Shown here piece by piece: positions 1-47,207 of a stretch of 49,809 bases of DNA (position 1 is the first letter of the stretch; each line of letters opens with the position of its first letter). A program made the translations under genes and the position numbers. Origin of the DNA: Magnetospirillum sp. (lineage in GTDB: Bacteria > Pseudomonadota > Alphaproteobacteria > Rhodospirillales > Magnetospirillaceae); contig JACRFY010000088.1 in the NCBI GenBank assembly GCA_016212565.1, forward strand, positions 1-49,809, written 5' to 3'. The notes beneath the pieces were generated by a model, which did not search any database, was not told the DNA's origin, and saw nothing but the letters and a program-made list of their open reading frames with translations.

Positions 1-138
1 CACCTCGCCGATCGAATTGACGGTGGCGTAGATCACCTCGACCAGACGATAGCCCGAAGCCCCCTGGAGGGCGATCACGTCACCGGAGGTGAAGTCGGTG
101 ATGGTGTCGAAGCTGTCGCCGACACTGTCGCCGGCGGC
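1..138 (-). repeat. Left arm of a >=138-bp inverted repeat (truncated by the window edge)
   Basis: Bases 1..138 are the reverse complement of 934..1071 with 135/138 matches (mismatches at 35, 46, 90). The minus strand reads AAGDSVGDSFDTITDFTSGDVIALQGASGYRLVEVIYATVNSIGEV, the same peptide the + strand encodes at 934..1071. ORF-track cross-check: ORF 89..409(+) and ORF 699..974(-) both open with MVSKLSPTLSPAA. Confidence 0.9.
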
Positions 139-210
139 ATCGGCGGCGACAGAGGCGGCGGCTGCGGCGTCGGCGCCGGCGTGGGCGGCCTCGGCGACGA
201 CGCCTATCAC
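1..210 (-). CDS. Possible 5' portion of a divergent paralogous RTX-adhesin-like gene running off the left edge, or a non-functional inverted-duplication remnant
   Basis: The minus frame in phase with the giant ORF reads ..VIGVVAEAAHAGADAAAAASVAADAAGDSVGDSFDTITDFTSGDVIALQGASGYRLVEVIY.. This is an Ala-rich linker followed by the conserved module, as in the + gene. Candidate GTG starts lie at 210 and 273. There is no visible promoter or intergenic space, and the region overlaps the + ORF, so this is very uncertain. Confidence 0.25.
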   Translation of the reverse strand, partial: MIGVVAEAAHAGADAAAAASVAADAAGDSVGDSFDTITDFTSGDVIALQGASGYRLVEVIYATVNSIGEV

Positions 211-3200
211 GGCGGCAGCGACGGCAGCGACGACAGTCCGGCCGACACGGTCAAGTATTCCAGCGCCATCCACACCATCACCGTCGACCTCGCCGCCGGC
301 ACCGCCAGCGGCGTCGACATCGGCAGCGACACGCTGGACGGCATCGAGCACGTCATCGGTGGCCAGGGCGACGATTTCATCATCGGCAACGCCGCCGACA
401 ATTCCTTGAACGGCGGGGCCGGCATCGACTCGCTGACCGGCGGCACGGGGGCCGACACCCTGACCGGCGGCAGCGGCGGCGACACCTTCACCATCACCGC
501 TTCCGCCGCCGCTGTCGCCGCCGCCACTGCCGCCGCCGCCGCCCAAGCCGATGCCGCCCAAGCCGGCGCAGACGCCGTAGCCGCCGCCGCTGTCGCCGCC
601 GATGCCGCGGCAGCCGCCACCGCCGCGATCGCAGCCGTCAATGGCGCCGACACTGCCGCCACCACCGCCACCACCACCGCCATTGCCGCCGCCGCCGCCT
701 ACGCCGATGCTGTCGCCGCCAACGCAGATGCCGCGACTCTCGCCGCCCTGGCCGCCGCCCAGACCGCCGCCGAAACCGACGCCGCTATCGCCACCGGGAT
801 GGCCAGCAGCGCCCACGCTCTCGCCGACGCCGCCCAAACCAACGCCGATGCCCTCCTCGCCGCTGCCGTTGCCGCCGACGCCGCCGCCGCCATCGCTCTC
901 GACGCTGCCGCCGCCGCCCCCACCGCCGCCCGCGCCGCCGGCGACAGTGTCGGCGACAGCTTCGACACCATCACCGACTTCGCCTCCGGTGACGTGATCG
1001 CCCTCCAGGGGGCTTCGGGCTATCGCCTGGTCGAGGGGATCTACGCCACCGTCAATTCGATCGGCGAGGTGGCCACCGCCATCGCCGCCGACACCCGGCT
1101 GGCCGATGCCGTCGTCCGCTTCCAGGTCAACGGGGATTCGAGCACCTACTTGTACGTCTCCGGCGACGGCGGCGGCACGTCGTACGATGGAACCGTCATC
1201 CGTCTGGAGAACGGCGCCGTTCCGGCGTGGAGCGATTTCAGCGGCGTCAAAGGCCGCATCGTCTTGGATTCCGGCGCCGCGGAGAGCCTGACCGGCGGCA
1301 GCGGCGACGACCTGCTGATCCACGCCGGCGGCGTCGACACGGCCGAGGGCGGTGCCGGCAACGACACGGTCGAGATCCGCCTGACCGCCTCGCAGTCGCT
1401 GATGGGCTTCGACGTGATCGGCACCACCGGGCTCCGGGTCAACATATCCGGGGACAACGGCCAGTCGGTGGCCCATTCGCTCGAGATCGCCGGCCAGTTC
1501 GGCAGCGGCGGGGTCGAAACCCTGCGCCTGGTCAAAGAGGTCAGCACCGGGGTCTACGAGACCCAGACCTATTCGCTGTCCACCACCCGCGGCACCCAGG
1601 GCGGCACCGGATCCGAGATCCTGGTCACGGCGGCCACCGGAAGTTCGCTGAACGGCGGCGCCGGCGACGACTGGATCCTCGGCGATGCCGGCGCCGACAC
1701 CCTGACCGGCGAAGGCGGCGAGGACGTCCTGGTCGGCGGTGCGGGTGACGACACGCTGGCCGGCGGGGCGGCCGGCGACGTCCTGCTCGGCCAGGGCGGC
1801 GCCGACACCTTCCGCATCTTCGCCGGCACCTCGACGGTCGCCGATCCCGACGTGATCGGCGATTTCGACGGCAATACCGACATCATCAGCTTCGTCGGCA
1901 TGTCCGACGCCTCCTACCGCGCCCAGCCCTTCACCTTCGCCACCGATGCCGCGACCACCGCCGGCCAGATCGCCGCCGACAGCACCCTGGGCAATGTGGT
2001 GGTGTTCTTCGCCGACCTGAACGGCCAGACCTCGTACCTGTACGTCCGCAATCCCGGTACGAGCCTCGACGGCACCCTGGTCGAGTTGCGCGGTGTCGTG
2101 ACCATGCCGCCGCTGTCGGCGATCGACGGCGTCATCGGCTACGCTCCCACCGAGGGCAACGACATCCTGGTCGGCAACGCCTCGGTCAATGCTCTCTCCG
2201 GCCTGGGCGGCGACGATTCCCTTGAGGGGCGCGGCGGCGACGACCTGCTCGACGGCGGCGATGGCGCCGACGTCGCCAAGTTCACCGGGACCTCGGACGC
2301 CTACACCATCTCGGCCAGCGGCCTGACCGTGACCGTCGCCGATTCGACCGCCGGCCGCGACGGCAGCGACACACTGACCAATGTCGAGGCGCTGGACTTC
2401 GCCGGCGACGGCGCGCCGCTCTCGATCGACCTGACGTCCTCGACCAGCCCGCGGCTGATGGCCGGCGACGGCGCCGATTCGCTGGTCATCGGCAGCGGCA
2501 TCGAAGCGGTGGACCTGGGGGCCGGCGACGATGCCCTGACCCTGGCGGTCGGTTCCGCCCACGCGACGTCGATCCAAGGCGGCGCCGGCACCGACACGGT
2601 GCGGCTGTCCGGAACCCTCGCCGACACCGCCTTCGCCACCATGGCCGGTGTCGAGCGCCTGGAGCTGACGGGAACCACCGCCCTGACGTTGGGCGGAAAT
2701 TCGGCCATTGCCGGAATTGTCGCCGTCGATGCCGCGGGGGCCGGCGGCGCCGTCACCATCGACGCCACCACCCATGGCGGAGCCGTCACCCTGACCGGCG
2801 GCGCCGGCAACGATACAATCACCGGCACCTCCGAGAGCGGAGCGGCGCCGGCTTTGTCGGTGACGGCCCTCGACGGCAAGAACGGCTTCGCCATGAACGG
2901 CGAGGCGGCGGGCGATTCGTTGGGAATCCAGCTCGGGGCCCTGGGCGACATCAACGGCGACGGCTTCGACGACGTCATCGTCTCCGCGCGCGAGGCCGAT
3001 CCCGCCGGCAACTCCCGCGCCGGCTCGGCCTATGTGGTGTTCGGCAAGGCGAGCGGATGGTCGAGCCAGCTCGACCTGGCGTCGCTGAATGGGACCAGCG
3101 GCTTCCGCATCGACGGCAGCGCGGTCGACGACATGCTGGGCATGGAGGTGCGCGGCGTCGGCGACGTCAACGCCGATGGCATCGACGACTTCGCCTTCAG

Positions 3201-6200
3201 TGCCGGTGGCACCGATTTCAACGGCCTCACCACCTCCGGCTCGGTCTACGTGGTATTCGGCAAGAAGAGCGGGTGGACGGCGAGCCTGAGCGTCGCCGGC
3301 CTCGACGGCAGCACCGGGTTCCGGGTCGATGGCGCCGCGGCCGGCGATACCATCGGTCGCGCCGTCGGCGCGGCAGGCGACGTCAATGGCGACGGCATCG
3401 GCGACCTCTCTATCGGCTCGCCGTTCGTCGGCAGCGGCGATCCCGGCGGCGTCTCGGTGCTGTTCGGCAAGGCATCGGGCTGGACGGCGACCATGAGTCT
3501 CGCCACCATCGACGGCAGCAACGGGTTCAATCTGACCAGCACCGTCATCGGTGGCGGGGTGGGATACAGCGTCGCCTCGGCCGGCGACTTCAACCACGAC
3601 GGTTACGACGACCTGATCGTCGGCGCTCCCACCGACGCCGGAAAGGCCTATGTCGTCTATGGCCACGGCGGCGCCTGGACGTCGTCCTCGTCGCTCGGAT
3701 CCCTGGACGGCAGCAACGGCTTTGCCATCCTGGGCGGCGCCACCGGCGACGTGACCGGGCTCAACGTCGACGGCGGCGCCGATCTCAATCACGACGGTTA
3801 CGCCGATCTGATCGTTTCGGCCGACCATGCCGACCTTGCCGGCACCGCCGACGGCGGCGCCGCTTATGTCATCTACGGCAAAGCCGGCACGGTCGCGCCG
3901 ACGCTGTCCCTGTCCGCGTTCACCGCCACCGATGGGGTGGTGATCGAAGGCGCCAATAACAACGATCTGGCCGGCAGGGGCGTGTCGTTCCTCGGCGACG
4001 TCAACGGCGACGGCGTCGACGACGTCGTGATCGGCGCCCCGTATGCCGATTCCCCTGGGGCCTCGGACGGCGGTTCCGCCTACGTGCTTTACGGCAAGGC
4101 GGGCGGAATCGGCTCCGGCGGCACCCTGTCGCTGGGCGCACTGACCGTCGCCGACGGCTTCCGCATCGACGGAGTCGCCGGCTCGAAGCTCGGCTACACC
4201 GCGCGCGGAGCCGGCGACGTCAATGGCGACGGCCGGGCCGATATCCGCGTCGGTGCCGAATATGCCGATCCTGCCGGCCGCACAAACGCCGGCGCCGCCT
4301 ATTTGGTATTCGGCGCCGCCGACGATACCCTGACCGGCGGCGGCGGCGCCGACGTGCTGACCGGGGGCGCCGGCACCGATCTGTTCGTCTATGCGGCCGG
4401 CGATTCGGCGGTGGGCGGCGTCGACACCATCGCCGACTTCAGCCCCGGCACCGACGTCATCCGCCTGAGCGGTGCCGCCGGCTATCACTTCCTCACCCAG
4501 GTGGTTGCCGTTTCCGGCAACGCCGTCACCACCGCCATCGCCGGCCTCGATTCCAATTACGACGATTCTGTGGTGGCGTTGAGCAACGGCACCGACGGCT
4601 GGCTCTACGTCAAGGGCGACGGCGACGGCATCGGCGCCGATTTCGACGGCACCCTGATCGCCGTCACCGGCCTCAAGGCGCGGCCGACGATGGCAGCCGT
4701 CGAGGGCGTCGACGGGGACCTGTATGTCGGCACCAGCGGCGACGACACCCTGACCCTCAACCAGGGGGCGGTGTTCCGCGGCGGCCTGGGCAACGACACC
4801 TATGTCGTCAGCGCGGTCTCGGCGATGGTGATCGCCGATGCCGGCGGCACCGATGTGCTCGATGTCACGGCGATGCCCGAAAGCGCGTTCGTCGGCATGA
4901 GCCGGTCGGGCAGCGATCTGGTGATCACGCTGTGGAACGGGACCTCCCAGATCGACACCGTGATCAAGGATCACTTCGGCGCCGGCACCATCGAGAACGC
5001 CACCGACGGCAGCGGCACGATGCACTTCGCCACCGGCCTGACCGGCACCGGCGGCGACGACATCATCGTCGGCACCGGTGCCGGCGAAACCCTGACCGGC
5101 GGCGGCGGCGACGACGAGTTCTTCGGCGGCGGCGGCGCGGATACCTTCGTCGGCGATGCCACCGCCACCGCCTGGGGCGGGATCGAGGGCGGCTCGGTCA
5201 GCTATGCCGTGGCGGCGTCGGGGGTGACGGCCAACCTGACCACCGGCACCGGCGTTCTGGGCGGCGCGACGCAGACCTTCGTCGCCATCACCCGGGTGGA
5301 GGGCTCGGCCTTCGCCGATGCGCTGACCGGCAGCAGCCATGGCGGCGACCTCGAAGGCCGCGCCGGCAACGACAGCCTGACCGCCGGAGCGGCGAATACC
5401 TGGGCGGTGTACGACAGTTCGCCGAGCAAGGTGGTGGTCAACCTGTCGCTCGCCACCCAGGCCGGCGTGACATCGATGCATGCCAGCGACGGCTTCGGCG
5501 GCGACGACACCCTGAGTGGCATTCGCGCCGTCCAGGGCTCCGGCTTCGCCGACACCCTGTATGCCGGCAACGACGGCGACACCCTGAGCGGCGGCGCCGG
5601 CAACGACGACCTCCACGGCGGCGCCGGCAGCGACATGCTCGGCGTGCGCAATGCCGACAGCGACACCGTCGACGGCGGCGGCGGCACCGACACCCTGTAC
5701 ATCGACGAGAACGGCAACGGAGCCACCGCCTACGATCTCACCGGCCATGCCGGCACCATCGACGGCATCGAGCGCATCAACCTCGACTGGAAGGGCCAGA
5801 ACGTCGCCCTGACCGTCAGCCAAAGCGCCATCGCCGCCACCACCAGCGGCAACGCGCTGACCGTCGAGGGCAGTGCCGGCGATTCGGTGGTCGCCCACGG
5901 CACCTGGACTCACACCGCCAACGAGACCTCCGGCAACACCTACCGCGTCTTCACCGGCAGCAACGGCGAGGTCCTGAAGGTCGATTCCGACGTGGCGATG
6001 AGCTTCGACAGCGCCATGGCGCCGCTGATCACCGGCTCGGGCGCCGGCAATTTGGCCGAGGGCGGCACGTTGACGGTGAGCGCGGCCTTGCTCGGCGCCG
6101 ACGACGTCGATACCGCGGCGGCGAACCTGACCTTCCGCGTCGCCACCCTGCCCGCCCATGGCCAGCTTCGCCTCGACGGCAGCCTGCTCACCGTCAACGC

Positions 6201-9200
6201 CACCTTCACCCCGGCCGATCTGGCCGCCGGCAAGGTGACCTTCGTCCATGACGGCGGCGAGACCACCGCCGACAGCTTCGCCGTCACCCTTGGCGACGGC
6301 AGCAACACCACCGCCGCGCGGACCATTTCGTTGAGCGTCGCGCCGGTCAACGATGCCCCAGTGGCGGCGGCCGATGCCAACACCTATGGGGCGACCCCGC
6401 TGGCCATCGCCACCACCACCGCCTTTGACACCGAGTCCTTCACAATCGGCGGCCAGACCTACCTCGCCGCCGCCGGCGGCGACCTGGCCATCCACCGCTG
6501 GGACGGCACCCGGTTCACCACGGTCCAGACCCTGCCCCAGACCGCGTTGGCCAAGGGCCTGGACAGCTTCACCATCGGCGGCGAGACCTATCTTGCGGTA
6601 GCCAACAGCGTCGCCAGCGGCGACTACACCATCGGCTCGATCATCTACCGCTGGAACGGCACCCAGTTTGCCCAGGTCCAGTCGATTGCCACCAGCGGCG
6701 CCACGGACTGGGAAGCCTTCACGGCCGGCGGCAACAGCTATCTGGCGGTCGCCAACAGCTATGACGGCACCAGCGCCAACATTACCTCGTGCATCTACCA
6801 GTGGAACGGCACCCAGTTCGCCCAGGTGGCATCCATCGCCACGTCCTACATCCAGGACTGGGAAAGCTTCGAGATCGACGGACAGGTCTACCTGGCCTCG
6901 GCCAACATTAGCGATACACCTGTCGTCTACAAGTGGAACACCGACACCAGTCAGCTCGACTCCATCCAGAGCTTCTCCGACTCCACCCCCTCGGACTGGA
7001 CCAGCTGCAAGATCGCCGGCGAGACCTACCTCGCAGGATTCACCTATGATGCGAGTTTGAACACCTCTAAGATCTACAAGTGGAACGCCGGTACGGCGCA
7101 GTTCGCCCCGGTGCAGACGCTCGTGACCGCCGCGGTCCGCGACGTCGAGGCGGTGCAGATCGGCACCGACACCTATCTTGCCCAGGCGTCCTATACCACC
7201 GGCTCGGTCATCTACAAGTGGAACGGCAGCCAGTTCACCGCGTGGGACACCGTTACGGCCAGTTCCGCCAGGGACTGGGAAGGCGTCACCATCGACGGCG
7301 AGACCTATCTTGCCGTCGCCGAGTATGGTGCCGCCAGTTCCCGCCTCTACCGCTTCAACCCCGAAACGGGCAGCTTCATCCAGGCATTCGAGGCCACCCC
7401 GGACCTCACCACCGCCGAGAACGCGCCGCTCGCCATCGCCGCCTCCAGCCTGGTGGCCAATGATAGCGACGTCGACGGCGACACGCTGACCATCACCACG
7501 GTCGCCATGGCGCCGGGTGACGAGGGCAAGGGGACGGTGAGCCTCAGCGGCGGCACCGTCACCTTCACCCCCTCCGCCGCCGGCGATGCCCTGAATGGCG
7601 GCGAGGTGTCCAACGTCGGCTTCACTTATACCGTCTCCGACGGCCACGGCGGCACCGCAACCGCGACGGCGACCGTGCGGGTGGTCGGCGTCAACGACGC
7701 GCCGGCCGTCACGCTGCCGGCCAGCGTGTCCGCCATCGAGGACACGCCCACATCCCTTACTCTGACGGTTGCCGACGTCGACTCGGACAGCCTCACCACG
7801 ACACTGAATGTCGCCCACGGCACCCTGAGCCTGGGCTCGACCACCGGGCTGACCGTCAGCGGTGCCGGCACCGGGGCGGTGGCCCTGAGCGGCTCGGGCG
7901 CCGATCTCCACAGCGCGCGGGCCACCCTGTCCTACACGGGCACGGCGAACTACAACGGCGCCGACAGCCTGACCGTCACCACCTCGGACGGGACGCTGTC
8001 GGACACCGACAGCGTCGCCATCACCATTTCCGCGGTCGCCGACGCGGCGACGTTCGGCGGCAACCTGACCGCAACCGTCGGCGCCCAGACGCCGGACATC
8101 ATCCGCCTCGACACCACCAGCGCCGGCGCCCAGGCCAATGGCAATACCAATTCTTACGCGTCCTTCTCGGCCGACGGCAATCTCGTCGCTTTCACCAGCG
8201 CCGCCACCAACCTGGTCGACGGCGACAGCAACGGCAAGTGGGACGTCTTCGTCAAGAACCTGACCACCGGCGCGGTCACCCGGGTCAACACCCTGGCCGA
8301 CGGTAGCCAGACCACCGGCAATGCCACCTTCCAGAGAGTGGCGCTCTCGCCCGACGGCACCAAGGTAGCCTTCATGAGCGAGGCCACCGATCTGGTGGGC
8401 AGCGATACCAACGGCGTGGTCGACATCTTCGTCAAGGATCTGGTCACCGGAGCGCTGGTGCGGGTCAACACCGCCGCCGACGGTACGGCGGCCAACAGCG
8501 CTCCAAGCCTTCTCGCCTTCACCCCCGACGGCAACAATCTGGCGTTCGACACCGGCGCCTCCAACCTGACGGCCGGCGACACCACGGTCTGGGACATTTT
8601 CCTCAAGAGCCTCACGGGGACGAATGTCGACGGGAATCTGGCGTCGACGATCACCAAGCTCAGCACCAGTGCGAGCGGCACCGCCGGCAATGGCAACAGT
8701 ACCGAGGTGGCGTTCTCGGCGGACGGCACCAAGGTGTCGTTTGTGAGCGTTGCCACCAATCTCGTGTCCGGCGACACCGGAACCACCGATATTTTCGTCA
8801 AGGATTTGGCCACCGGAAGCGTCACCAAGGTCAGCCAACTTTCCAACGGCACTGGGGGCAACGTCTCCAGTACTTCGACCAGCATCTCGGCCGACGGCAC
8901 CAAGGTCGCCTTCCGTTACGACGGCACCGGCTTCTCGGCCGCCGCCGACACCAATGGTACCGGCGACATCTACGTCAAGGACCTGACCAGCGGGGCGATG
9001 ACCCTGGTCAGCACCGCCGCCGACGGCACGGCCGCCAACGCGCTGTGCACGCTGCCGGCGATCTCGCCCGACGGCACCAAGGTGGTGTTCACCAGCACCG
9101 CCACCAACCTGGTGCCGGGGGTGACCAGCGGCGTCTCGCAGCTCTACCTCAAGGATCTGGTTACCGGAGCCATCTCGGTCATCAGCGCCGCCGCCGACGG

Positions 9201-12200
9201 TACCGTGGGCAACGCTGTTTCCAACGTGCCACTGTTCACCCCCGACGGCACCCACGTCGAATTCATCAGTGGCGCCACCAACCTGGTCGCCGGCGACACC
9301 AACGCCACCTACGACATCTTCTTGAAGACCCTGCCGCAGACCGGCTCGGTGTCCGGCACGGCGACGGCGAGCGACGTCGACGGCGCCACCGCGTTTACTG
9401 CCCAGACGGCCACCGCCGGCACCTATGGCAGCTTCTCGATCACCGCCGCCGGCAGGTGGACCTACACCCTCGATAGCGGCGCCTACGCCCCGCTGGCGGC
9501 CGGCCAGACCGCCACCGAGACCTTCGCCGTCACCGCCACCGACGGCACCACCCAGAATGTGGTCGTCACCGTCAAGGGCACCAACGATGCCCCGGTCAAC
9601 ATCCTGCCGGCGACGACGATCACCGCCGCCGAGGATGCCAGCCAGGCGATCACCGGGCTCACGGTGGCCGACGTCGACGGCGGCAACCTGACCACCACGC
9701 TGGCGGTCGGCCACGGCACCCTGAGCCTGGGCTCGACCACCGGACTGACCGTCACCGGCGCCGGCACCGGGGCGGTGACGCTCAGCGGCTCGGGGGCCGC
9801 TCTCAACAGCGCGCTGGGCACCCTGTCCTATCTGGGGACCGGCAACTACAACGGCGCCGACAGCCTGACCGTCACCACCTCGGACGGGACACTGTCGGAC
9901 ACCGACAGCGTCGCCATCACCATTTCCGCAGTCGCCGACCCGGCGACGTTCGGCGGCAACCTGAGCGCAACCGCCGGCGCGGTGACGCCGACCACCATCC
10001 GGGTCAACACCGACTTGGCCGGCGCCCAGGCCACCGGCGGCAACACCAATTCCGCAGCATCCTTCTCGGCCGACGGGCGGCTGATGGCCTTCACCAGTTC
10101 CGCCACCAACCTGGTGAGTGGCGACACCAACGCCGACTACGACATCTTCGTCAAGAACATCGGCACCAGCACCGTCAACGGCCTGGCGCCCGGCCAGGTG
10201 ATCCGCGTCAACACCCTGGCCGACGGCAGCCAGCCCGCCGGCGTGACCGGCGTCTCGCCGACGAGCATCGCCATCTCGCCCGACGGCACCAAGGTCGCCT
10301 TCCTCAGCTCCGCCACCGACCTGGTGGCCGGCGATACCAACGGCGTGGCCGACCTCTTCGTCAAGGATCTGACCACCGGAGCGCTGACCCGGGTCAACAC
10401 CGCCGCCGACGGGAGCGAAGCCAACGCCACCGTGGGCGCCTTCACCTTCACCCCCGACGGCAACATCGCCTTCGACACCACCGCCACCACCCTGACGGCG
10501 GGAGATACGGCGGTCCGCGACATCTTCCTCAAGAACCTGACCACGGGAGCGGTCACCAAGTTCAGCCCCTATGCGGACGGCACCGCCGGCACCAGCAATA
10601 CCGGTCTTGGCGGGTTCTCGGCGGACGGCACCAAGGTGGTGTTCACCAGCGCTGCCAGCAACCTGGTGGCGGGCGACACCAACGGGCTGGGCGACATTTT
10701 CGTCAAGGATCTGACCACCGGAACCGTCACCCGGGCCAGCGTGCTGGCGGACGGGTCCCAGGCCAATGGCAACCTGGAATCGCCCACCCTGTCGGCCGAC
10801 GGCACCAAGGTGGCGTTCCGCTACTACGGCACCGGATTCTCGGCCGCCGACACCAACGGACTCACCGACATCTACGTCAAGGATCTGACCACCGGCAGCA
10901 TGACCCTGGTCAGCGCCGCCGCCGACGGCACGGTCGGCAACGCGCTGTCCATTGGCGCGGCGATTTCGCCTGACGGCACCAAGGTGGCCTTCCTCAGCAG
11001 CGCCACCAATCTGGTGACCGGCGACACCAACGCCAGCACCGATGTTTTCGTCAAGGATCTCGTCACCGGGGCCATAACACGGGCGTCCACCGCCACCGAC
11101 GGCACCCAGGCGAATGCTTTCACCCCGATCAGCGTCCTGCCCGACAGCAACCGGGTGATTTTCATCAGCAGCTCTACCAGCTTGGTTGCCGGCGACACCA
11201 ACAACGCCTACGACCTGTTCATCAAGACCCTGCCCTTCGCCTCCACCATCACCGGCACGGCGACGGCAAGCGACGTCGACGGCGCCACCGCGTTTACTGC
11301 CCAGGCGGCGACCGCCGGCACCTATGGCAGCTTCTCGATCACCGCCGCCGGCAAGTGGACCTACACCCTCGATAGCAGCGCCTATGCCCCGCTGGTGGCC
11401 GGCCAGACCGCCACCGAGACCTTCGCCATCACCGCCACCGACGGCACCAGCCAGAACATCGTCGTCACCGTCAACGGCGCCGACGACGCGGCCGCCCTGG
11501 TCGCCGACACGGCGTCGGTGACCGTCGGCGGGACCGCCACCGGCAACCTGCTGACCAACGACGTCGACGTCGACACCGGCAGCAGCTTCACCGTCACCGG
11601 AATCACCTCCGAGGACTCGGCCGCCCACTTCACCGGCGTCGGCAAGCTGACCACCACCCCGATCGTCGCCAGCGCCACCACCGGGCAGCAGGTGTCGGTG
11701 TCCTTCGACATGAAGTGGGACGGGACGCAGTTGGTCATGCCCGTCGGCTTCACTACCTACTCTCTCTATGTGTCTAACGGCGGCTTCGGCTTCAACACCG
11801 GGAACAGCGACGATATCTTCGGCATTGCCAACGGCAGCGCCCTGGCCGGCGACTGGCACAGCATCACTGCGGTGTTCACCCAAGGAAACGTCGGCGCCAG
11901 CAAGCTTTATATCGATGGCGTCGAGCAAACCCTGGGGCAGATCAACGGCTCGGCCAACAACGCCAATGCCATCATCACCGATACCCTCAACCTGGCGGGC
12001 TGGGCGCATCCGACCATCCCCGATGGCTACCGCTTCTCCGGCGACCTCGCCAACGTGCAACTGCACGACCGGGCGCTGACCGCCGCCGAAGCGGCCCAGG
12101 TCGCCGAGGGCACCGTCGTCGCCAGCGGGCTGGTGGCGCAGTACGAGTTCAATTCCGGGGCCCTGCTGGTCGACAGCTCGGGCAACGGCCACACCGCGAC

Positions 12201-24200: not shown

Positions 24201-27200
24201 CAACAGCGTCCACGGCGGCACGGTCACCGTCGAAAGCGACGGCCGCTTCACCTACGTCCCCGCCGCCAATTACAGCGGCGCCGACAGCTTCCAGGTCAAG
24301 GCCTGGGACGGCAGCGCATGGACGACGCAGACCATCGCCGTCACCGTCGAAGACTCCACCGATTTCCTCGGCGTCCAGGACGGCGGGGCCTTCCTCCAGG
24401 TCACCCCGGGCGGGTTGCCGATCAGCCAGCAGACCTTTACCGCCGGCACCTTCGCGCGCGCCTTCACCTTCGAGACCGACATCAACGTCAGCGATTTCGG
24501 CGTCGTCTCGCAGTCCTTCAGCGGCCATCCGTTCTTCCGCCTCGGCGACGATGCCGGCACCGGCGGCTTCACCCTCGGCTTCGACCTCGACGGCGTCATC
24601 CATCTCGCCGGCACCACCGGGGCGATGGTGTCCTCCGCCAGCGGCGCCCTGGACGCCGACACCTGGCACCATCTCGGCGTCAGCTACGACGGCAGCACGG
24701 CGGTGATCACCGTCGACGGCGAGATCGCCGCCAGCGGGTCGCTGGGCGCGATCACCGTCGCCCAGCAGGTGATGCGGCTGATCGACGCCAATCCGCTGGG
24801 CGACGCCCACGGCGCCGCCTTCGCGCTGGACAACACCCGGCTGTGGAACGTCGCCCGGACTCCGGCCGAGATCGCCGCGACCGCCCACACCACGCTGGAC
24901 GGCGACGAAAGCGGCCTGATCGGTTCCTGGACCTTCGACGGCGAGGCCGGCGGCTCCGTCGCCCACGATCTGGCCGCGGCGGGCGGACGCCAGGATCTGA
25001 CCGTCGAGACCCAGGCCGCCAGCCAGGGCCTGCTCACCGATGGCCGGAGCCTCGCCACCGCCACGCCGGTGACCCAACAGCTCGACAACATCACCATGGA
25101 GGCCTGGCTGCGCCGCGACGGCACCGGCGGCGCGCAGATGGTGATCTATAATGGAAATTCCGGCTTTAACGGCTACGGCATCCTGGTCGACACGACCTCC
25201 GGCCAGCCGAAGATCCTGTGCGGCGGCTCCGGCTACGTCACCGCCACCAGCGCCACCATCGCGGTCGGCGACTGGCACCACATCGCCGCCACCCGCTCGG
25301 GCGGCACTTGGCACATGTATCTCGACGGCAGCGAGATCGCCGTCGACGGCGCGTCAACCGCCCCCGTCAGCACCGCGGTGACCGGCGTCACCGGCGTCGG
25401 CGGCGTGTCCACGACCGGCTTCAACGGCGCCCTGGCGGACGCCCGGCTGTGGACGGTAGCCCGCACCGCCGACGAGATCCGCGAGACCATGGACACGCGG
25501 CTGTCGGGGAACGAGACCGGACTGGCCGGCTACTGGCGCCTCGACGACCTCAGCGGCTCGGTGGCGCCCGATCTGGCCAGCGCCGGCGGCACCAGCAACA
25601 TGACCCTGGCCGGCACGCGCGCCATGACCGATGGCCCGCCGCTGCACGCCAACGTCACCATCATCGAGCCGCCGCAGCAGGGCATTCATTTCGACGGCAG
25701 CGGCGATTTCATCGCCACCGCCGCCTCCCTGACTCTGGGTGCCCATACCACCGAGTTGTGGATCAGGAGCGAGGACCATTCTCGTTCTTGGGGTGGTATC
25801 GTCGGCAAATTCGTTTCACTGTCGTCCGACTATGGTCGCCTTCGCATCCAGGTGGATGGCGGTGGCGGCAATTACACCGATTACATCACCAGCGACATCA
25901 TCCTCGATGGCGTCTGGCACCACATCGCCTACGGCTACGATCCCACCGCCGCGGTCGCCGACCGCGTCACCCTGTATGTCGATGGCGTCGAGACGGCTCT
26001 CGGCATCACCACCATCGGCGACATGACCACCGCCCCCACCGCCATCGCCTCGTCGGTGGTGATCGGCGATTCGGAAGGCGACGGCGCTCACACCATCGAC
26101 GGTACCCTCGCCGACGTGCGCATCTGGAACGGCGTCCGCAGCGCCGACCAGATCGCCGAGACCATGAACCAGCGGCTGTCGGGCGACGAGAGCGGACTGG
26201 TCGCCAACTGGGTCCTCGACGACGTCAGCGGCAGCACGGTTCCGGCCCTCGTCGGCCCAGCGGCCACCCTGACCGGGGCGACCGTCGCGGATATCGCCAC
26301 CGACGTCCACAGCCTCAGCATCGCCACCAGCGAGGACACCGCGATCCACGGCACCCTCGCCGCCACCGATCCGCAACTGAGCGGCGCGCTGACCTGGTCG
26401 CTGGCCGCCGGCGGGACCCCGCACGGCACGGTCAGCGTCGCCGCCGACGGCAGCTTCGTCTACACGCCGACCGCCGGCTATGCCGGTACCGCCAGCTTCA
26501 ACGTCGCGGTCGTCGACGCCCAGGGGGCGTCGAGCACCCAGACCATCACCGTCAAGGTCGCCGACACCACCGAGGTGCTCGGCGTCACCACCGGCGGCGC
26601 GCGGATGCGCTTCGACGGCGCCACCACCCTGTCGCTGGCCAGCCCCGCGACCGTCGCCACCGGCACCGGCGACTTCACCTGGGAGGCGGTGATCCGCACC
26701 GGCCAGACCGGCGGGCGCATGGACCTGATCGACATCGGCAGCGTCACCGCGGGCGCAAACCGCATGGCGACGCTGATGGTCCAGGACGGCAAGGCGTCGT
26801 TCGCGGTTCGCGACCAGTCGGCCCTGACCGGCGAGAGCAACATCGCCGACGGCCTGTGGCACCATGTGGCGGTGACCTACGCCAAGGCCACCGGCGAAGC
26901 GCAACTGGTGGTCGACGGCGTCGCCGAAGGCAGTGCGGTGCGGATCAACCCCGACCTGGCCAGCGACTTCGCCACCGTCGGCGGGGCCAAATGGACCGGC
27001 ACCTACAACTTCGTCGGCGAGATGGAAGAGGTGCGGCTGTGGAACGTCGCCCGCAGCCCCGACGACATCGCCGCCGCGATGCATTCCCCGTTGAGCGGTA
27101 GCGAGACCGGCCTGGTCACCTGGCTGCGCCCCGAGGACGGCAGCGCCGACACCATCGCCGACCTGGCCGGCGGCAACAACACCGCCACGGCGGTGCGCAT

Positions 27201-30200
27201 GCCCGACCACCTGGACGGCGCGGCGCTGCGGATGGACGGCAACGATTACGTCTCCATCACCAACCTGACCGGCCTGAGCACCGGCGGCGGCGCCTTCACC
27301 TACGAGGCCTGGGTGCGGACGGCCGCCACCGGCGCCGAGAATCCCATTCTCGCCGTTGGCGCCAACGGGAACGGCGGGGCCGCCGCATTGTGGCTCTCCG
27401 TGGATGGCAGCCTGCGGGCGCAGATCGACGGCAACAGCGTTTACAGCGTCCCGGCCGCCATTGCCGACGGCACCTGGCACCATGTCGCGGTGTCCTACGG
27501 CGGCAATGGCAGCCAGACGCTGTCCTTCACCGTCGACGGCATCGCCAGCGGCTCCTTCACCAACGTCGCCTCGACCACGGCCGCCGCCATCGTCTCCGGC
27601 GTCGCCCGCATCGGCACCAACCTGACATCGAGCGCCTATTTCGTCGGCGACATCGCCGACGTTCGGGTGTGGGATACCGCCCGCACCACCGCCGAGATCG
27701 CCGCCACCAAGGACACCATCCTCGACCCGGCGAGCAACGGCCACCTGGTCGGCAACTGGCACCTGTCGGAACTGTCCGGCACCACCGTCGCCGACGCCAC
27801 CAACACCGACAACGCCGACAATGCCGGCACGCTGACCGGCGGGACCTGGGTGCACGTCCTCAACGACGGCCCCGTCGCCATCGTCCCGCCGGCCCGGGCG
27901 CTGAACTTCGACGGCGTCGACGACAAGGTGACGGCAACGCTCGCCAGTGGATCGGCCGCCATCAAGACCCTGGAGTGTTGGGCCTCGTTCGACAGCCTGT
28001 CCGACACCCGAACCATCGTCAGCAAGCTCGGCGCCGGAGCCGGATTCGAGATCGTCCTCATGAACGGGGAACTGCGCGTCTACGTCGACAACGCCGACTA
28101 CGGCGGCGGCACCGGCATGGCGCACATACCTGCCTCCGCGCTGGGGACCAGACAGTGGCACCATATTGCCGCCACCCACGATGGCCCCAACAGCATCCTG
28201 CGGCTGTATGTCGACGGCGTCGAAATGGGTACCGCCATGGTGCCGTCGAGCATCGGTGAAACGACTGGGGTAATGATCGGCAATTGGTTCACCAACCGCC
28301 CCTTCGACGGCCAGATCGCCGACGTCCGCGTCTGGTCGGTCGCGCGCAGCGCCGAAGACCTGCGTGCGACGATGAACGAGACCCTGTCGGGCAGCGAGCC
28401 GAACCTGCTCGGCAACTGGCCGCTGGCCAACGATGCCGTCGATATCAAGACCCTGGGGGCCGGCACCGTGACCGGCGGTCCGGGCTTCGTCGACACCACC
28501 GCCGCGGTCTACGACGAGTCCATCACCGTTCACGCCGGCACCGCCTTCAACGGCCATCTCGGCGGGCTCGACGCCGACGGCGCCACCCTGGCGTGGAGCG
28601 CCGGTGCGGCCACCTCGGCGCAGGGCGGAACGCTCGACGTCGGTTCCGGCGGCGTGTTCGTCTACAAGCCGGCCGCCGGCTTCGTCGGCACCGACAGCTT
28701 CACCGTCATCGCCTCCGACGGCGACGCCACCACCAGCAAGGTCATCACCGTCACCGTCGAGAGCGCCCTGACCAATTCCGGCGTCGGAAACGACGCGCCG
28801 ATTGCCGCCAGCGGCAATGTCCCGGTCGGCGGCCAATTGGTGGCCGAGGACGACGGCCGGCCGGTGAGCTGGAACGTCGGCACCACCGCCACCGCCCATG
28901 GCAGCGTCGCCATCGCCGCCGACGGCAGCTTCACCTACACCGCCGCCGACGCCTATGTCGGCGCCGACAGCTTCACCGCCATCGCCACCAGCGACGGCAT
29001 CACCCGCAGCAAGACCATCGCCGTCGCGGTGGAGAACCCGCTGGCGGACATCGGCGCCAGCCATTCCGGCGGGCAGTTGCGCCTCGACGGCGTCGACGAT
29101 GCCGCCGCCACCGCCGATGCCTCGCTCGATGTGTGCGGCAAGTCGTTCAGCTGGGAGTTCTGGGCTCGCCGCGACTCGGCCGCCGGCGACGACATCGTCC
29201 TCAAGCAGGGCACCGCCGCCATCGACGGCGGATTGCAGATCGGCTTCGTCGGCGCCCAGACCTTCCGCTTCGGTTTCTACAACGACGACCTCGATTACAC
29301 CGTGGCCGGCGACACCACCGACACCTGGCAGCATTGGGCCGGCACCTTCGATGCCGCCTCCAACGTCCGCAAGCTGTACCTGAACGGCGCGTTGGTGGCC
29401 GAGAACGTGGCCAACGGCGATTATGTCGGCGGCGGTGCGCTGACGCTGGGCGCCGGCTTCTCCGGCGGCAATTTCGGCGGCCAGCTCGACGATGTCCGCA
29501 TCTGGAGCGGCGTGCGCAGCGGCGCCGAAATCGCCGCCAACCTCGACAACACGGTGGCCGCCAATTCCACCGGCCTGCTGGCCAACTGGACCTTCGACGA
29601 TGTGCACGAGGGGGCGTGGATCGAGGACCGCAGCGCCAACAACCACGACCTGACGCTGGCGGGCGCCGATGGCCGCGCCAGGATCATCGCCCCGCCGGAT
29701 CGGGCGACCGCCTTCGACGGCGGCGAGCTGTTGACCGTCGGCGCCCTGACCACCGGCACCAGCGCCATGACCTACGACGCCTGGATCCACACCGACCAGG
29801 CCACCGGCCGCATGGAGATCCTGACGGCGGGCGACGATGCCGTGGCCAAGAAGGGCCTGGCGTTCACCGTCGACAACGGCCTGCTGCACTTCGACCTCAC
29901 CGGCACCAGCGGGCCGACCGGCGCGACCAATGTCGCCGACGGGGCCTGGCACCATGTGGCGGCGGTCCTGAGCAGCGCCGGCACGGTGTCCCTGTATGTC
30001 GACGGCAAGCTCGACGCGGTCGGCAGTGCCGGCGCCATGGCCGGCTATGCCTTCGACAGCACCGCTGCCGCCGTGTTGGGCGACACCTTCGTCGGCCAGA
30101 TCGCCGAGGCCCGGGTGTGGACCACCGACTTCTCCGCCGACCGGGTGCGCGAGCTGATGAGCGAGCGGATGAGCGGCGGCGAAGCGAACCTGCTCGCCTG

Positions 30201-33200
30201 CTGGCGTCTCGACGGCCCCGCCGGTTCCGGCGCGGTCGACGTGGCCTCGGCCGCCGCTCACGGCGGCGACCAGTCGGGCACGTTGAGCGGCAACGCCGGC
30301 ATCGATCCGACGGTGGTCGAAGCCGAGAAGCCCGGCATCTACGACCTCACCCTGACCACGCGCGAGAACACCGTCCTCCGCGCCACGCTGGCGGCCGACG
30401 AGACCGTCGACGGCCGCAGCGGCACCGTGGCCTGGACCGCGACCAGCGGCACCGGCACCTATGGGACCTATCAGGTGTCGGCCGACGGCACGCTCAGCTA
30501 CACTCCGACCGCGGGCAAGGTCGGCACCGACACCTTCACCCTCTCCGCCGTGGCCGGCGGCGTCACCACCACCCGCACCGTGTCGGTGACCGTCGAGGAT
30601 TCGACCGAGATCCTCGGCGCCAACACCGCCGGCGCCGGCTTGCAGTTCGACGGAATCGACGACAGCGCCAAGACCACCGTGGCCATGGGCACCGCCGGCA
30701 CCATCGAGATTTGGGTGCAGAAGGCGGATTGGAGCCCGGCCACCGACGAATTGATCATCGGCAACGGCCTCCATTGGCAGAGCGACGATCCCCTCTACCT
30801 CAGCATGAACCCGGCCGGCCTGCACTTCCGCTACGGCGGCCAGACGCAAACGGGGCAGCAATCCTACGCCTATAGCGACGCACTGACCTGGGCGCCGCAA
30901 TCGTGGCACCACGTCGCCCTCTCGTGGCAGCAGAGCGGCACTCAGACCCTGTTGACCCTGTATGCCGACGGGACCCAGGTCGCCAGCACCACCACCACCC
31001 TGCAAATCCCCATCGCGGCGCTCGACGAGTGGGTGCTGGGCCAACGCCTGACCACCGGCGGCGACATCAATCAGGGCTGGCTCAACGGCACGCTCGACAA
31101 CATCCGCCTGTGGGGCGACGTCCGCAGCGCCGAGGAAATCGCCGACGGCTACAACCGGGCCACACCGGCGGCGACCGATCACCTGCTGGCCAACTGGGAC
31201 TTCGGCACCACCGGCGCCGTCGACGGTTACGCCAGCGACGGCCACGGCAACAACCTGATCCTGGGCGCCGCATATGCGCCGGAGGCCGGCGACCCGGTGG
31301 TGATCAATCCGCCGCATGCCGCCCTGTCCTTCGACGGCGTCGACGACAGCGTCGACCTCGGCACGGTGGCGTTCGGCGGCGCCTGGGCGGTCGAGGCGTG
31401 GGTTTCCCTCGACAGCGCGACCGGCAGCCCGGTCGTCGCCTCGCTGACCAACGGCGGCGACGCCATGACCCTCGGCTTCGTCGCCGGCAAGCCGACGTTG
31501 GTCCTGGTCGCCGGCGGCCATACCTACGCCCTGACCGGCACCGCCGCGGTGAACGCAAACCAGTGGGTGCACGTGGCCGGCTCGCTCGACGCCAGCGGCA
31601 CTCCCATCCTGGTCGTCAATGGCCAGACCGCGGCCTTCACCGCCACCAAGGACGGCGGCGCGATGAGCCTCGGCGAGACCGTGCCGATGCCGGCCGAGGG
31701 CACCTGGAGCGCCACCCTGGGCAAGGACGACGCAACCGCCTCCGGCTACCTCGACGGCATGATCGCCGACGTGCGGCTGTGGGATCGCACCCGCTCGGTG
31801 TCGGAAATCGCCACCGCCATGAACCAGCGCCTGGCCGGCGACGAGCAAAGCCTGGTCGGCAACTGGCGCCTCGACGACGTCAGCGGCACCAGCGCCGCCA
31901 ATGCCGCCGAGACTCCGCCCGCCGGCACCAGCACCACCGCCACCATCAGCGGCGCCACCGTGGTGATGCTGAAGCCGGTCGCGGTCGACAAGGCCTTGAG
32001 CGTCAACGAAGACACCACCATCCGCGGCACGCTGGTCGGCAGCGACGACGAGGACCAGGCTTTGATCTGGTCGGCGGGCTCGGCCACCTCGGCCCACGGC
32101 GGCAGCGTGGTGGTCAACAGCGACGGCACCTTCGCCTACACCCCGGCGGCCAATTATTACGGCAACGACAGCTTCACCGTCGCCGCCCACGAGCTGGGCA
32201 CCACGGCGACCGACACCACCAGGACCATCACCGTCACCGTGCAGCCGACCAACGGGGCGACCGCCTCGACCTGGACGGGGGCCGTCGACTCCACCTGGAG
32301 CACGTCCGCCAACTGGAGCAATGGGGCTCCGGGCGAGGACACGCTGGTCACCGTCGTCAACACCGCCGCCGCCCTCACCCAGGGAACCGGGATTGCCGGT
32401 CTGGCCGTGTCCGGCACCAACGGCGCGGTGCAGATCTCGGCCGGAACCCTGCGCATCGGCGGCGGCGATCTCACCGTCGGCACCGGTGCCGAACTGCGCC
32501 TGAGCGGCGGCAACATCGAGACCCTCGCCGGCTCGGTGGCCAGCAGCGGCGATCTGGTCGTCGACAGCGACGCCACCATCACCGTCGCCGCCGGGGAGGC
32601 TCTATCCCTGACCGGCGGCACCGTCGATGTGGCCCTGGGCAAGACCCTGACCGTTGCCGGCGCGGGCACCGTCAACCTGTCGGGCGATATCGCCTGGGCC
32701 GACGAGGGCGATGTCGACCTCAGCGGCAGCCACACCCTGCACCTCGCCACCGGCGGCGTCACTTTGCATGCCACCCCGGCGGATGCCGGCCGGATCCTGT
32801 TCTCCGGCGCCATCACCGTCACCGGCGGAACGCTGACCAACGACCGCACGCTGTCGCTGTCGGGCGCCGACGACGTCTTCCAGGCCGCGGTGGTCAACAC
32901 CGGGGGGCTGCGCGTGATCGACGACGGCAGCGCTGCCAACGTGCTGTTCGACGGCGGCCTTACCAACAGCGACACCATCGAATTGACCGGCACCACCGAC
33001 GCCGCCAGACTCAGCCTGGGCAGCGGCGACGTCCTCAGCAATGCCGGCACCGGCCGGATCGAGGTCTCCGGCACCCATGCCGAGATCGCCGGCATCCTCG
33101 CCAACGCCGGCACCGTCGACCTCAACCACGCCGGCACGCTGACCTTGGCGGCGGGTTCGACCTTCACCAACGCCGCCGGGGCGACCATCCTCGGCGCCGA

Positions 33201-35319: not shown

Positions 35320-36080
35320 CCATCGCCGGAGCGATCGTCGCGAGATTCGTCGGCGGGCTGTTCGCGGTCCTGATGGCAGCCGGCGTCGCCATGGCCGGCG
35401 AGCAGACCTACGTCGTCGGCGTCGAGGACCTCGACTACAGCCCGGTCTATGCGGTCGAGAACGGCGTCTATGTCGGCGCCGGACGCGACATCCTCGACGC
35501 CTTCGCCGCCGATCAGGGCTTTCGCTTCATCTATCGCCCGCTGCCGGTCCGCCGCCTGTTCGCCGAGTTGATCCGCAACGGCATCGACTTCAAGTTCCCC
35601 GACAATCCCCACTGGCAGGTGGCGGCCAAGGCCGGGACGACCATCGCCTACAGCCGTCCGATGATCGCCTATATCGACGGCACCCTGGTCCCCAAGGCGG
35701 CCGCCGGCCGCGGCATCGAGAGAGTCGCCCAGCTCGGCACCGTGCGCGGCTTCACCCCCTTCGCCTGGGCTCAACGCCTGGCCGCCGGCCGCCCGCAACT
35801 GCGCGAAGGCGCGCGGCTCGACAACCTGCTGGCATCGCTGGAGGGCGGACGTCTCGATGCCATCTATGCCAACGTCGCCGTGGCCCTGAGCAAGCTCGAA
35901 CGCCAGGGGCGCGGCGGCGCGGTGGTCTTCGACCCGGCGCTGCCCCACGATATCGGTGCCTATATGCTGTCGACGCCCCGGCACCCGGAGATCATCGCCC
36001 GCTTCGACGCCTGGATGATCGCCAACGCCGAGCGGGTGCGGCAGATCAAGGCCTCCTGGCAGGCGGAGCGGCGCAACTAA
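35316..36080 (+). CDS. Periplasmic solute-binding protein, family 3 (amino-acid-ABC-type PBP fold), orphan
   Basis: 254 codons. The ATG at 35316 overlaps the giant-gene TGA (ATGA). Signal peptide: MTIAGAIVARFVGGLFAVLMAAGVAMA|GEQ. The body (..DLDYSPVYAVENGVYVGAGRDILDAF..FRFIYRPLPVRRLF..DFKFPDNP..) resembles SBP_bac_3. Only the last 254 codons of track ORF 33648..36080 are used. Confidence 0.82.
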   Translation: MTIAGAIVARFVGGLFAVLMAAGVAMAGEQTYVVGVEDLDYSPVYAVENGVYVGAGRDILDAFAADQGFRFIYRPLPVRRLFAELIRNGIDFKFPDNPHWQVAAKAGTTIAYSRPMIAYIDGTLVPKAAAGRGIERVAQLGTVRGFTPFAWAQRLAAGRPQLREGARLDNLLASLEGGRLDAIYANVAVALSKLERQGRGGAVVFDPALPHDIGAYMLSTPRHPEIIARFDAWMIANAERVRQIKASWQAERRN

Positions 36081-36111: not shown

Positions 36112-36311
36112 AGCATTATGGTTTTGCCCCTCGCCGGGCGCGGCTCTCCGGCCGCTTGGCAGCTCGCTCAATGCTTGCAAAAGCACCGCGCTGCACATTT
36201 AAGGCGCGTCGTTCTAGGCTTCCCTCCCCCGGCGGAGGTACGCCCTCCGCCCACTGCCCCTCGTCCCCCCGCCAACCAATATCCGGAGGGTGGTCATACG
36301 AAGGGGCAGCC

Positions 36312-37484: not shown

Positions 37485-37495
37485 CGGATGGCACC

Positions 37496-39444: not shown

Positions 39445-39461
39445 CCGGGATCACGGAGGCG

Positions 39462-41007: not shown

Positions 41008-41122
41008 CGGTGCCGCGGCAATTTCGCCTGCGCTGCTTGCCGCCGATCCACAACCCATCCTCAGGTTGCGCCCCTCGTTCCCTCATGGTATAGGTTTTCT
41101 TATACTTTGGGGTTAAGGGGCC

Positions 41123-44463: not shown

Positions 44464-44575
44464 GGTGGCTGGAAATCTCCGTTCAGCGTAATACCTGAAT
44501 GATGCGGGATGGAATCCGCACACCATATGTGGGGCGGAATCGGGCCGGATGGCCCGTTGCGGGGATGGACCGGCC

Positions 44576-45595: not shown

Positions 45596-45721
45596 GGATT
45601 AGCCGGCTTCTCGGACCAATTCTGAGATGACCCCAGCCGGGGCGGAACGATTACCCCGGCACGAATTGCTGTTACCGCCGCAGGCGGACAGCCTCACCAA
45701 GGCCTCCGAATCTGATTGCAC

Positions 45722-45741: not shown

Positions 45742-45769
45742 TATACATCATACAGAAGCGGAGGACGAC

Positions 45770-46292: not shown

Positions 46293-46304
46293 GGGCATCT
46301 CCCC

Positions 46305-47197: not shown

Positions 47198-47207
47198 GGT
47201 CGCTCTC

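Follow-up and report, generated by a model that had tools for sequence, protein, structure and literature searches.

What kind of protein is specified by a reading frame that runs uninterrupted for more than 35 kb, and by which route might such a protein leave the cell? These questions are raised by contig JACRFY010000088.1 of the Magnetospirillum sp. assembly GCA_016212565.1. The window that we analysed is this entire contig (49,809 nucleotides), and the region upstream of the giant gene lies outside it. We conclude, with a probability of roughly 0.78, that the giant gene encodes a calcium-binding surface or matrix protein of the type exported by type I secretion systems (T1SSs), at least 1.18 MDa in mass and composed of multiple lectin-like domains and multiple β-propellers. 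The elements on which this reading depends most are the following.

181–35319, plus strand: giant open reading frame (ORF), 11,712 codons counted from the first in-frame GTG.
32272–34794, plus strand: β-helix-like region in two segments (amino acids 10758–11598), each starting with a 'W...W...P..d.v' motif.
34795–34956, plus strand: C-terminal RTX β-roll of four nonapeptides (HemolysinCabind match at amino acids 11597–11631).
34957–35316, plus strand: C-terminal tail of ~120 amino acids, which recurs in conserved form at the very end of other giant RTX proteins.

Translation of frame 1 yields no stop from base 1 until the TGA at 35317–35319, a run of 11,772 codons, whereas the other five frames of the same 35.3 kb contain 315, 36, 6, 246, and 492 stops. 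The G+C content of the giant ORF at the three codon positions is 0.62/0.55/0.91, and the third-position value (GC3) is 0.85 or higher in all 600-nt bins but the first. Because it is free of stops, carries this codon-position signature and maintains a uniform GC3, frame 1 is a real coding sequence. The giant ORF is a genuine single gene and not a frame artefact, as a previous inspection of the letters alone (the sequence-only reading) had maintained on the basis of its 11,712 stop-free codons. Strong Pfam matches, which are distributed along the entire length of the protein, bear this out.

An ORF of this size could also arise as an assembly artefact in which collapsed, expanded or chimeric repeats of several genes or strains have been stitched together. 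Such an origin would fit the metagenome-type assembly from which the contig is taken, the marked domain-level repetitiveness of the protein, and the position of one contig end within a repeat. At the DNA level, however, the only sizeable internal repeat found by self-comparison is a 1.87-kb tandem duplication with 77% identity. The other internal repeats of the giant gene are either short or do not exceed 84% identity (84% over 255 nt; none above 77% over more than 300 nt), and there are no long shared k-mers. Moreover, a chimera would rarely show 11,772 codons without a stop and with a uniform GC3, and a homologous pair of 12,181- and 3,976-residue ORFs is present in an independent assembly. 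We regard an artefactual frame as highly improbable. The more specific concern, raised at the outset, that repeats have collapsed or been joined into a chimera inside the giant gene was rejected, as no internal repeats are similar enough and the median identity of the laminin G (LamG) domains is 24%.

As predicted from GTG181, the giant protein has a mass of 1,178 kDa and a pI of 4.09, and contains 15 cysteines in 11,712 amino acids; it is acidic and cysteine-poor, as type I secretion substrates are. Inspection of the translation after each of the candidate starts (GTG181, TTG406, and ATG799) revealed no hydrophobic N-terminal segment that could serve as a Sec signal.

Most of what can be said about the export route comes from the C-terminus. 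Four GGxGxD motifs are located at amino acids 11607–11649, about 120 residues before the end of the protein, and the β-roll and C-terminal nonapeptide repeats by which RTX adhesins and RTX-class T1SS substrates are recognized are both present. Sequence matches to this region in the PDB include CyaA, Pseudomonas lipase, the AlgE R-modules, and serralysins. When the C-terminal 450 amino acids were used in an exhaustive HMMER search, relatives were returned in which the match extends to the extreme C-terminus, namely P0262 (5,392 amino acids), P0244 (5,408), P0332/P0391 (3,342/3,976), P0362 (2,738), and P0260 (3,800, partial). Over the last ~160 amino acids, the giant protein is 37–47% identical to P0391, P0262, P0244, P0260, and P0362 (BLAST E values of 1e-13 to 2e-40), and pairwise comparison displays a pattern of invariant residues common to the tail homologues. 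The ~120-residue tail is presumed to be the T1SS targeting region.

One of these relatives connects the module to a secretion system. The gene for P0260, which originates from a Noviherbaspirillum metagenome-assembled genome (MAG), is followed 3 nt downstream by a gene for an ATP-binding cassette (ABC) protein with ABC_membrane and ABC_tran domains, and then by genes for an AprE-type membrane-fusion protein (MFP) and an OEP outer-membrane factor (OMF). The T1SS reading is supported because the C-terminal module of P0260, which is homologous to that of the giant protein (39% identity over 160 amino acids), adjoins this ABC/MFP/OMF operon. This lends indirect but specific support to a predicted function of the module in type I export and agrees with the sequence-only reading, which had taken the RTX blocks and the C-terminal tail to indicate a T1SS substrate.

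Several observations weigh against this interpretation. The NCBIfam models of T1SS C-terminal target domains gave no match at E ≤ 0.01; of the HMM check of the C-terminus that had been proposed, the Pfam part gave a match (HemolysinCabind) and the NCBIfam part did not. A word-index protein search with the 130-residue tail found no match either. The link between the module and a T1SS operon is provided by one relative, P0260, and T1SS genes are absent from the visible flanks of P0391 and P0362, including the 10 kb downstream of the latter. The fold matches of a structural model of the C-terminal end are all weaker than an E value of 0.001. At the other end of the gene, none of GTG181, TTG406, and ATG799 is preceded by a Shine–Dalgarno-like sequence and the contig contains no credible start, a promoter scan found no σ70-like site, and nucleotides 1–1200 show no dip in G+C content (the lowest 60-nt value is 0.58). 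Finally, Pfam scans of the 14.5 kb downstream did not detect an ABC exporter, MFP, OMF, LapG or LapD.

The last of these points had been stated correctly in the sequence-only reading, but the surprise that it implied is weakly founded. T1SS genes are usually found in one operon with their substrate (PMC8277102). Rhizobium leguminosarum PrsDE, however, has at least 12 substrates that are encoded around the genome and include cadherin-like and β-helix proteins (PMC2275737). Because the window is the entire contig and alphaproteobacteria are known to encode T1SS substrates apart from their exporters, the absence of secretion and retention genes downstream says little. Likewise, the notion of an 'orphan substrate' is weak, since the contig shows one side of the gene only and unlinked substrates have precedent. 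More generally, missing secretion genes on one side of a gene that is limited by the contig end are not informative.

The region preceding the β-roll bears on whether the giant protein is a T1SS substrate at all. It could instead be exported in the manner of two-partner or autotransporter β-helix proteins, or be retained in the cell. In favor of such a route, the β-helix-like region resembles autotransporter passengers, the contig carries no T1SS genes, and no curated T1SS-target model was matched. An AlphaFold2 model of the C-terminal end is all-β with a mean pLDDT of 72, which rises to 80–90 over the last 170 amino acids, and its fold matches, all of them weak, are to RTX rolls, the IcsA autochaperone, Ssp, and Ag43. 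The 'PATR-like β-helix' of the sequence-only reading did not survive the Pfam scan: neither PATR nor Autotransporter models matched the β-helix-like region at E ≤ 0.01, and the sole match within amino acids 10758–11598 is G8 at amino acids 11217–11280. Against export by such a route, a Sec signal follows no candidate start, models of β-barrel, two-partner secretion and POTRA domains are all without a match, and a protein whose gene adjoins a T1SS operon has the C-terminal module in common with the giant protein. Furthermore, RTX rolls fold solely in the presence of extracellular calcium. The autotransporter reading proper was rejected, as the protein ends in an RTX block and a tail and not in a C-terminal β-barrel translocator, and the wider group of non-T1SS routes has, in our estimate, only a slim chance of being correct.

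Starting from what is directly observed, namely (i) the coding frame, (ii) the domain content described below, (iii) the conserved C-terminal module, and (iv) the association of this module with a T1SS operon in one relative, we infer the export route, the calcium-driven folding and the adhesive role as follows. Synthesis of the giant protein would take place in the cytoplasm, with no Sec signal on the product. An ABC/MFP/OMF T1SS encoded elsewhere would recognize the C-terminal RTX block together with the conserved ~120-residue tail and thread the protein out unfolded, C-terminus first. Outside the cell, the binding of calcium to the RTX rolls and cadherin-like domains would drive folding. 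Five β-propellers and 23 LamG domains, which have a lectin fold and are spaced by Ig-like domains, would then offer many ligand- or carbohydrate-binding sites, and these could mediate adhesion or the building of a matrix.

The domain content was determined by Pfam scans of the entire protein and of twenty 600-residue pieces, and domains and blades were counted with hidden Markov models (HMMs) built on the giant protein's own repeats. The Pfam families matched are FG-GAP, EPTP, PD40, Laminin_G_3, Big_9, Cadherin_3/4/5, HemolysinCabind, and G8. In order along the gene, the body of the protein upstream of the β-helix-like region is arranged as follows.

184–492, plus strand: first RTX nonapeptide block (amino acids 62–164; HemolysinCabind at amino acids 128–162).
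493–933, plus strand: Ala-rich low-complexity stretch of ~150 amino acids, as read from the translation.
934–5700, plus strand: further RTX blocks with serralysin-C-like caps ('DxIxDF...YLYV...DGT'), with HemolysinCabind and Peptidase_M10_C matches.
2923–4308, plus strand: FG-GAP (integrin-α-like) propeller of seven blades (amino acids 975–1436; Pfam and own HMM).
6382–7359, plus strand: EPTP propeller 1, seven blades (amino acids 2128–2453; Pfam and own HMM).
7762–11489, plus strand: tandem duplication of two 1.87-kb units with 77% nucleotide identity (self-BLAST).
11632–12096, plus strand: LamG (Laminin_G_3) domain no. 1 (amino acids 3878–4032; own HMM).
12487–13494, plus strand: EPTP propeller 2, seven blades (amino acids 4163–4498; Pfam and own HMM).
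13876–31812, plus strand: 22 further LamG domains among Big_9/cadherin-like Ig domains (amino acids 4626–10604).

Laminin_G_3 matched with an E value of 0 in more than 20 stretches, with which Laminin_G_1/2 and Pentaxin matches overlap; the array at 13876–31812 itself gives Laminin_G_3, Pentaxin, and Big_9 matches. The own-repeat HMMs put the totals at 23 LamG domains (amino acids 3878–10604) and 22 Big_9-like domains. The LamG copies have diverged strongly (the 24% given above is their median pairwise protein identity), and the 22 Big_9/cadherin-like domains stand singly or in pairs among the LamG domains and propellers rather than in a single long tandem array. EPTP was matched with an overall Pfam E value of 5.8e-104, and the EPTP region also matches the EPTP domain of human LGI1 in sequence (E value of 5e-11). 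An EPTP propeller presumably also accompanies a LamG/pentraxin domain and calcium-binding repeats in the vertebrate giant adhesion receptor ADGRV1/VLGR1. Each unit of the tandem duplication (7762–9590 and 9658–11489) consists of a Big_9 domain, a seven-bladed PD40 propeller and another Big_9 domain, the propellers being located at nucleotides 8113–9324 (amino acids 2705–3108) and 10015–11223 (amino acids 3339–3741). The inventory of FG-GAP, two EPTP and two PD40 propellers and about 23 LamG domains that had been drawn up from the letters was therefore nearly exact by both Pfam and the own-repeat HMMs.

HemolysinCabind matches occur in the first ~1,900 amino acids and then again close to the C-terminus. 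The GGxGxD motifs of the first RTX block are found at amino acids 62, 72, 120, 138, 147, and 156, and the RTX span at 934–5700, which encloses the FG-GAP propeller, additionally gives partial NCBIfam serralysin/RTX matches. Between the two, the Ala-rich stretch at 493–933 separates the RTX block ('GGSGGDTFTI') from its usual cap motif ('DTITDFASGDVIAL'). This stretch is Ala- or Gly-rich on both strands, which makes the assignment of a strand from its composition ambiguous.

The 5′ end of the gene is less straightforward. The sequence-only reading had noted that the frame is open to the left edge of the window, and had proposed that the gene could be longer. This proposal loses its support with the following element.

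1–205, minus strand: inverted paralogous copy of nucleotides 873–1071, of which the minus strand encodes '...AEAAHAGADAAAAASVAADAAGDSVGDSFDTITDFTSGDVIALQGASGYRLVEVIYATVNSIGEV'.

The arms of this inverted repeat (I1; 1–199 and 873–1071) are 88% complementary and include a 48-nt exact stretch; the reverse complement of 1–132 differs from 940–1071 at three positions only. The minus-strand product of the left copy, '...AAGDSVGDSFDTITDFTSGDVIALQGASGYRLVEVIYATVNSIGEV', is the RTX-cap module that also occurs at amino acids 312–357 of the giant protein. Read in the plus-strand register, nucleotides 1–120 have a first-position G+C content of 0.88 and a GC3 of 0.57, which indicates coding on the minus strand, and the plus-strand coding signal begins at about nucleotides 181–205 with a GC3 of 0.93. 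The two coding signals meet head-to-head at about nucleotide 205 with no spacer between them, and the contig terminates inside the inverted repeat. The open frame at bases 1–180 is the antisense of the inverted copy and not part of the coding sequence of the giant gene.

That this stretch of 60 codons is open is uninformative because the antisense strand, read in the same codon register as the giant ORF, contains six stops in 11,773 codons. The same register gives rise to spurious ORFs of up to 2,124 amino acids (25816–32190), and the minus-strand antisense frame of 1–35319 is a trap for ORF-based annotation of GC-rich DNA. In DNA of 70% G+C, a frame that stays open up to the end of a contig does not in itself indicate coding.

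GTG181, TTG406, and ATG799 are the only in-frame starts near the 5′ end. A gene start at GTG181 is possible by analogy, as two other giants, P0310 and P0359, begin directly with RTX repeats. Alternatively, the left end could reflect a contig break or misjoin at an inverted paralogue, or a true inversion junction at about nucleotide 205. A fold-back assembly artefact was rejected, as the arms are 88% and not 100% identical and their divergence is gradual.

These features could mean that the ORF is a 5′-truncated remnant or an inversion product with a junction near nucleotide 205, and is possibly not expressed as such. A rearrangement, either in the genome or through an assembler misjoin between inverted paralogous modules, would then have detached the true start, as well as any retention module, from the gene body. 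This explanation would account for the abutting coding signals of the two strands, for the failure to find a promoter-like site or a Shine–Dalgarno sequence, and for the end of the contig within a repeat. It also fits the G+C content of nucleotides 1–1200, whose minimum of 0.58 contrasts with the dips to 0.42–0.50 in the true intergenic regions of the contig. Furthermore, the complete homologues P0262 and P0244 open with BapA-prefix and retention-like domains (weak, sub-threshold NCBIfam matches to BapA-prefix and LapA-retention models), which were not found here. On the other hand, 35 kb of stop-free sequence with undiminished GC3 argues that selection continues or that the event is very recent, arms that are 88% identical and decay gradually are not those of a simple fold-back artefact, and the precedent of P0310 and P0359 leaves room for a start at GTG181. 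On balance, we consider a truncated or inverted gene unlikely.

The inverted copy and the head-to-head junction at the left contig end are the most interesting loose end of the locus, and they invite another explanation. The inverted repeats (1–199 and 873–1071) could bound an invertible 673-bp 'head' containing the RTX block and the Ala-rich stretch, which recombination would join to either of two divergent giant paralogues in a phase- or antigenic-variation switch. Consistent with this, both arms fall in the coding register, and the intervening segment shares its frame with the right arm and would, once inverted, share that of the left copy. The break in the contig likewise agrees with an inverted paralogue of high identity that extends leftward. 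However, the window contains no recombinase or invertase gene, the segment contains no promoter-like sequence or start signal, there is no evidence of a second giant gene, and arms of only 88% overall identity make frequent homologous exchange unlikely. An invertible head is, in our view, scarcely probable. The bolder proposition that the junction at about nucleotide 205 and the 199-nt arms together constitute a recombination switch, which flips a shared 673-bp head between divergent giant paralogues, is very unlikely; if true, it would provide megadalton surface proteins with phase or antigenic variation.

Searches of public collections for the sequence upstream of the contig found none of it. 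A 30-mer from the left end had no exact match in metagenome_contigs, and a scan of amino acids 314–900 against genome_contigs and metagenome_contigs gave only generic RTX matches of ~30% identity. In a word-index search, the N-terminal 840 amino acids matched predominantly small RTX proteins and none longer than 1,469 amino acids. The plasmid collection had no match by DNA or protein.

Returning to the interpretation of the gene as encoding a T1SS-type surface or matrix protein, its nearest counterparts in architecture are two LamG-array RTX giants, P0391 and P0362, which like the giant protein combine LamG_3, Big_9/Cadherin_5 and FG-GAP domains with a C-terminal β-helix, an RTX block and the tail. 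P0391 has 11 LamG_3 domains, Big_9/Cadherin_5 domains, a C-terminal RTX block and the tail, and is collinear with amino acids 9598–11757 of the giant protein at 30–33% identity, which increases to 47% over the tail. P0362 has 21 FG-GAP repeats, LamG and RTX domains and the same tail. With a body identity of 30–33% (P0391), these are not close relatives, and all of them are uncharacterised. The domain mix, which the sequence-only reading had called unusual, is thus unusual in comparison to textbook RTX adhesins but not unique, since LamG, Big_9, FG-GAP and the tail recur in P0391 and P0362. At least one other metagenomic giant has this build, which suggests that environmental proteobacteria possess a subfamily of T1SS-type surface proteins that is so far uncharacterised.

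The gene for P0391 begins 15 nt after the 12,181-residue ORF on a contig of 53,163 nt (sample ERZ1426765). The two ORFs may be one gene of ~16,000 codons that is split by a frameshift or stop. Together they occupy 48.5 kb. The flanks, no more than 2.7 kb on the upstream side and 2.0 kb on the downstream side (HybE, FBPase), are too short for a full T1SS operon. The comparison with the giant protein covers P0391 itself.

Among characterised systems, the LapA- and MpIBP-type RTX adhesins (MpIBP: PMC5550230) resemble the giant protein in being very large, acidic, calcium-dependent and cysteine-poor, in combining Ig/cadherin-like with lectin-type ligand-binding domains, and in ending with a C-terminal β-roll followed by a short tail. 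Its size is also within their range, as RTX adhesins span 1,500–15,000 amino acids (bioRxiv 10.1101/2025.09.30.679566). P0262 and P0244, which share their C-terminal module with the giant protein, have the BapA-prefix/retention-like N-termini that are a trait of this family. The giant protein, in contrast, gave no match to the retention-module models NF033682 and NF033677 at E ≤ 0.01 on amino acids 61–2000, with the contig ending on the 5′ side. It also differs in several other respects: rather than building a long extender array, its Ig-like domains occur one or two at a time amid the 23 LamG domains and the five propellers, RTX blocks are also spread across its first ~1,900 amino acids, its repeats are strongly diverged rather than near-identical, and no lapBCE-type T1SS, lapG or lapD was found in the 14.5 kb downstream. 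The canonical plan runs from a retention module through an extender array and a ligand-binding region to an RTX block, and the giant protein, with its five propellers and 23 diverged LamG domains, departs from it. Of three defining features, the C-terminal β-roll and tail are present, a retention module was not found in the sequence up to the contig end, and the scattered Ig-like domains compare only ambiguously with an extender array. We therefore did not place the giant protein in the LapA/MpIBP family and treat it as a variant T1SS RTX surface protein rather than a demonstrated member.

The PrsDE substrates, which comprise the Rap cadherin-like lectins and β-helix proteins (PMC2275737, PMC5061743), are like the giant protein of the alphaproteobacterial calcium-binding extracellular type. 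They contain cadherin-like, lectin or β-helix domains, their T1SS is encoded elsewhere, and they are released rather than plugged into the outer membrane. They are, however, one to two orders of magnitude smaller, and the likeness is one of generic RTX and cadherin-like domains. CyaA, AprA, PML lipase and the AlgE R-modules share the RTX β-roll and cap with the giant protein (by sequence in the PDB, and weakly by fold), but the giant protein differs from RTX toxins, serralysins and lipases in having no toxin, protease, lipase or epimerase domain and in having the size and architecture expected of surface or adhesion proteins. A weaker variant of the very unlikely switch reading described above is that the LamG-array giants would form a class of T1SS proteins without a retention module, with unlinked exporters and with the solute-binding-protein-like product of the adjacent gene (see below) as a new partner.

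At 1.18 MDa, the giant protein is among the larger predicted bacterial proteins. Proteins of more than 10,000 amino acids are rare but known in many phyla, and genes longer than 30 kb, though infrequent, have been documented (bioRxiv 10.1101/2023.11.21.568195).

Downstream of the giant gene, the window contains two further units of interest.

35316–36080, plus strand: gene for an SBP_bac_3-like periplasmic protein of 254 residues that bears a signal peptide; the ATG of this gene and the TGA of the giant gene overlap (ATGA).
36156–44463, plus strand: cytoplasmic signalling cluster encoding, by Pfam, a PAS-containing histidine kinase, a response regulator, a response regulator–PAS–histidine kinase hybrid, a Crp-like regulator, and a CheB–CheR–PAS–histidine kinase protein.

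Both units, the solute-binding protein and the signalling cluster, had been recognized in the sequence-only reading. The SBP_bac_3 match is weak (22.5 bits, below the cut-off), as are the matches to amino-acid-binding proteins in the PDB; the codon-position G+C content of the gene is 0.70/0.48/0.89. The giant gene and the SBP_bac_3-like gene are probably co-transcribed, and the ATGA overlap suggests translational coupling. The homologues whose genomic context could be read have no such neighbour. Terminator and promoter scans of both ends of the giant gene found nothing, and an Rfam scan of the window detected no family.

Within the signalling cluster, nucleotides 41107–44463 on the plus strand encode a single protein of 1,118 amino acids in which a CheB methylesterase, a CheR methyltransferase, a PAS domain and a histidine kinase are fused. 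Between the genes for the hybrid kinase and the Crp-like regulator, a stretch of ~800 nt (39445–40245) contains no recognised gene or Pfam match on either strand. Beyond the cluster lie aat, two MlaD genes and a class II ribonucleotide reductase gene. Exact look-ups of three downstream proteins with their chosen starts returned no match.

The source organism is an uncultured alphaproteobacterium related to Magnetospirillum. The aat protein of the contig (P0121), which was otherwise found only on a 1.9-kb Logan contig, shares ~78–81% identity with its counterparts in Magnetospirillum and Rhodospirillaceae MAGs. The same aat gene is present in SRR22216450, and the aat–DUF2155–MlaD–MlaD block (44549–48203) is syntenic with that of a Magnetospirillum MAG (L162, contig JANQAI010000011.1). 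Upstream of aat, JANQAI010000011.1 carries a phage-integrase island and accBC where the present contig carries the signalling cluster and the giant gene. Because they are replaced there by the integrase island and accBC, the giant gene and the signalling cluster are accessory relative to that MAG, and the site upstream of aat appears to be variable.

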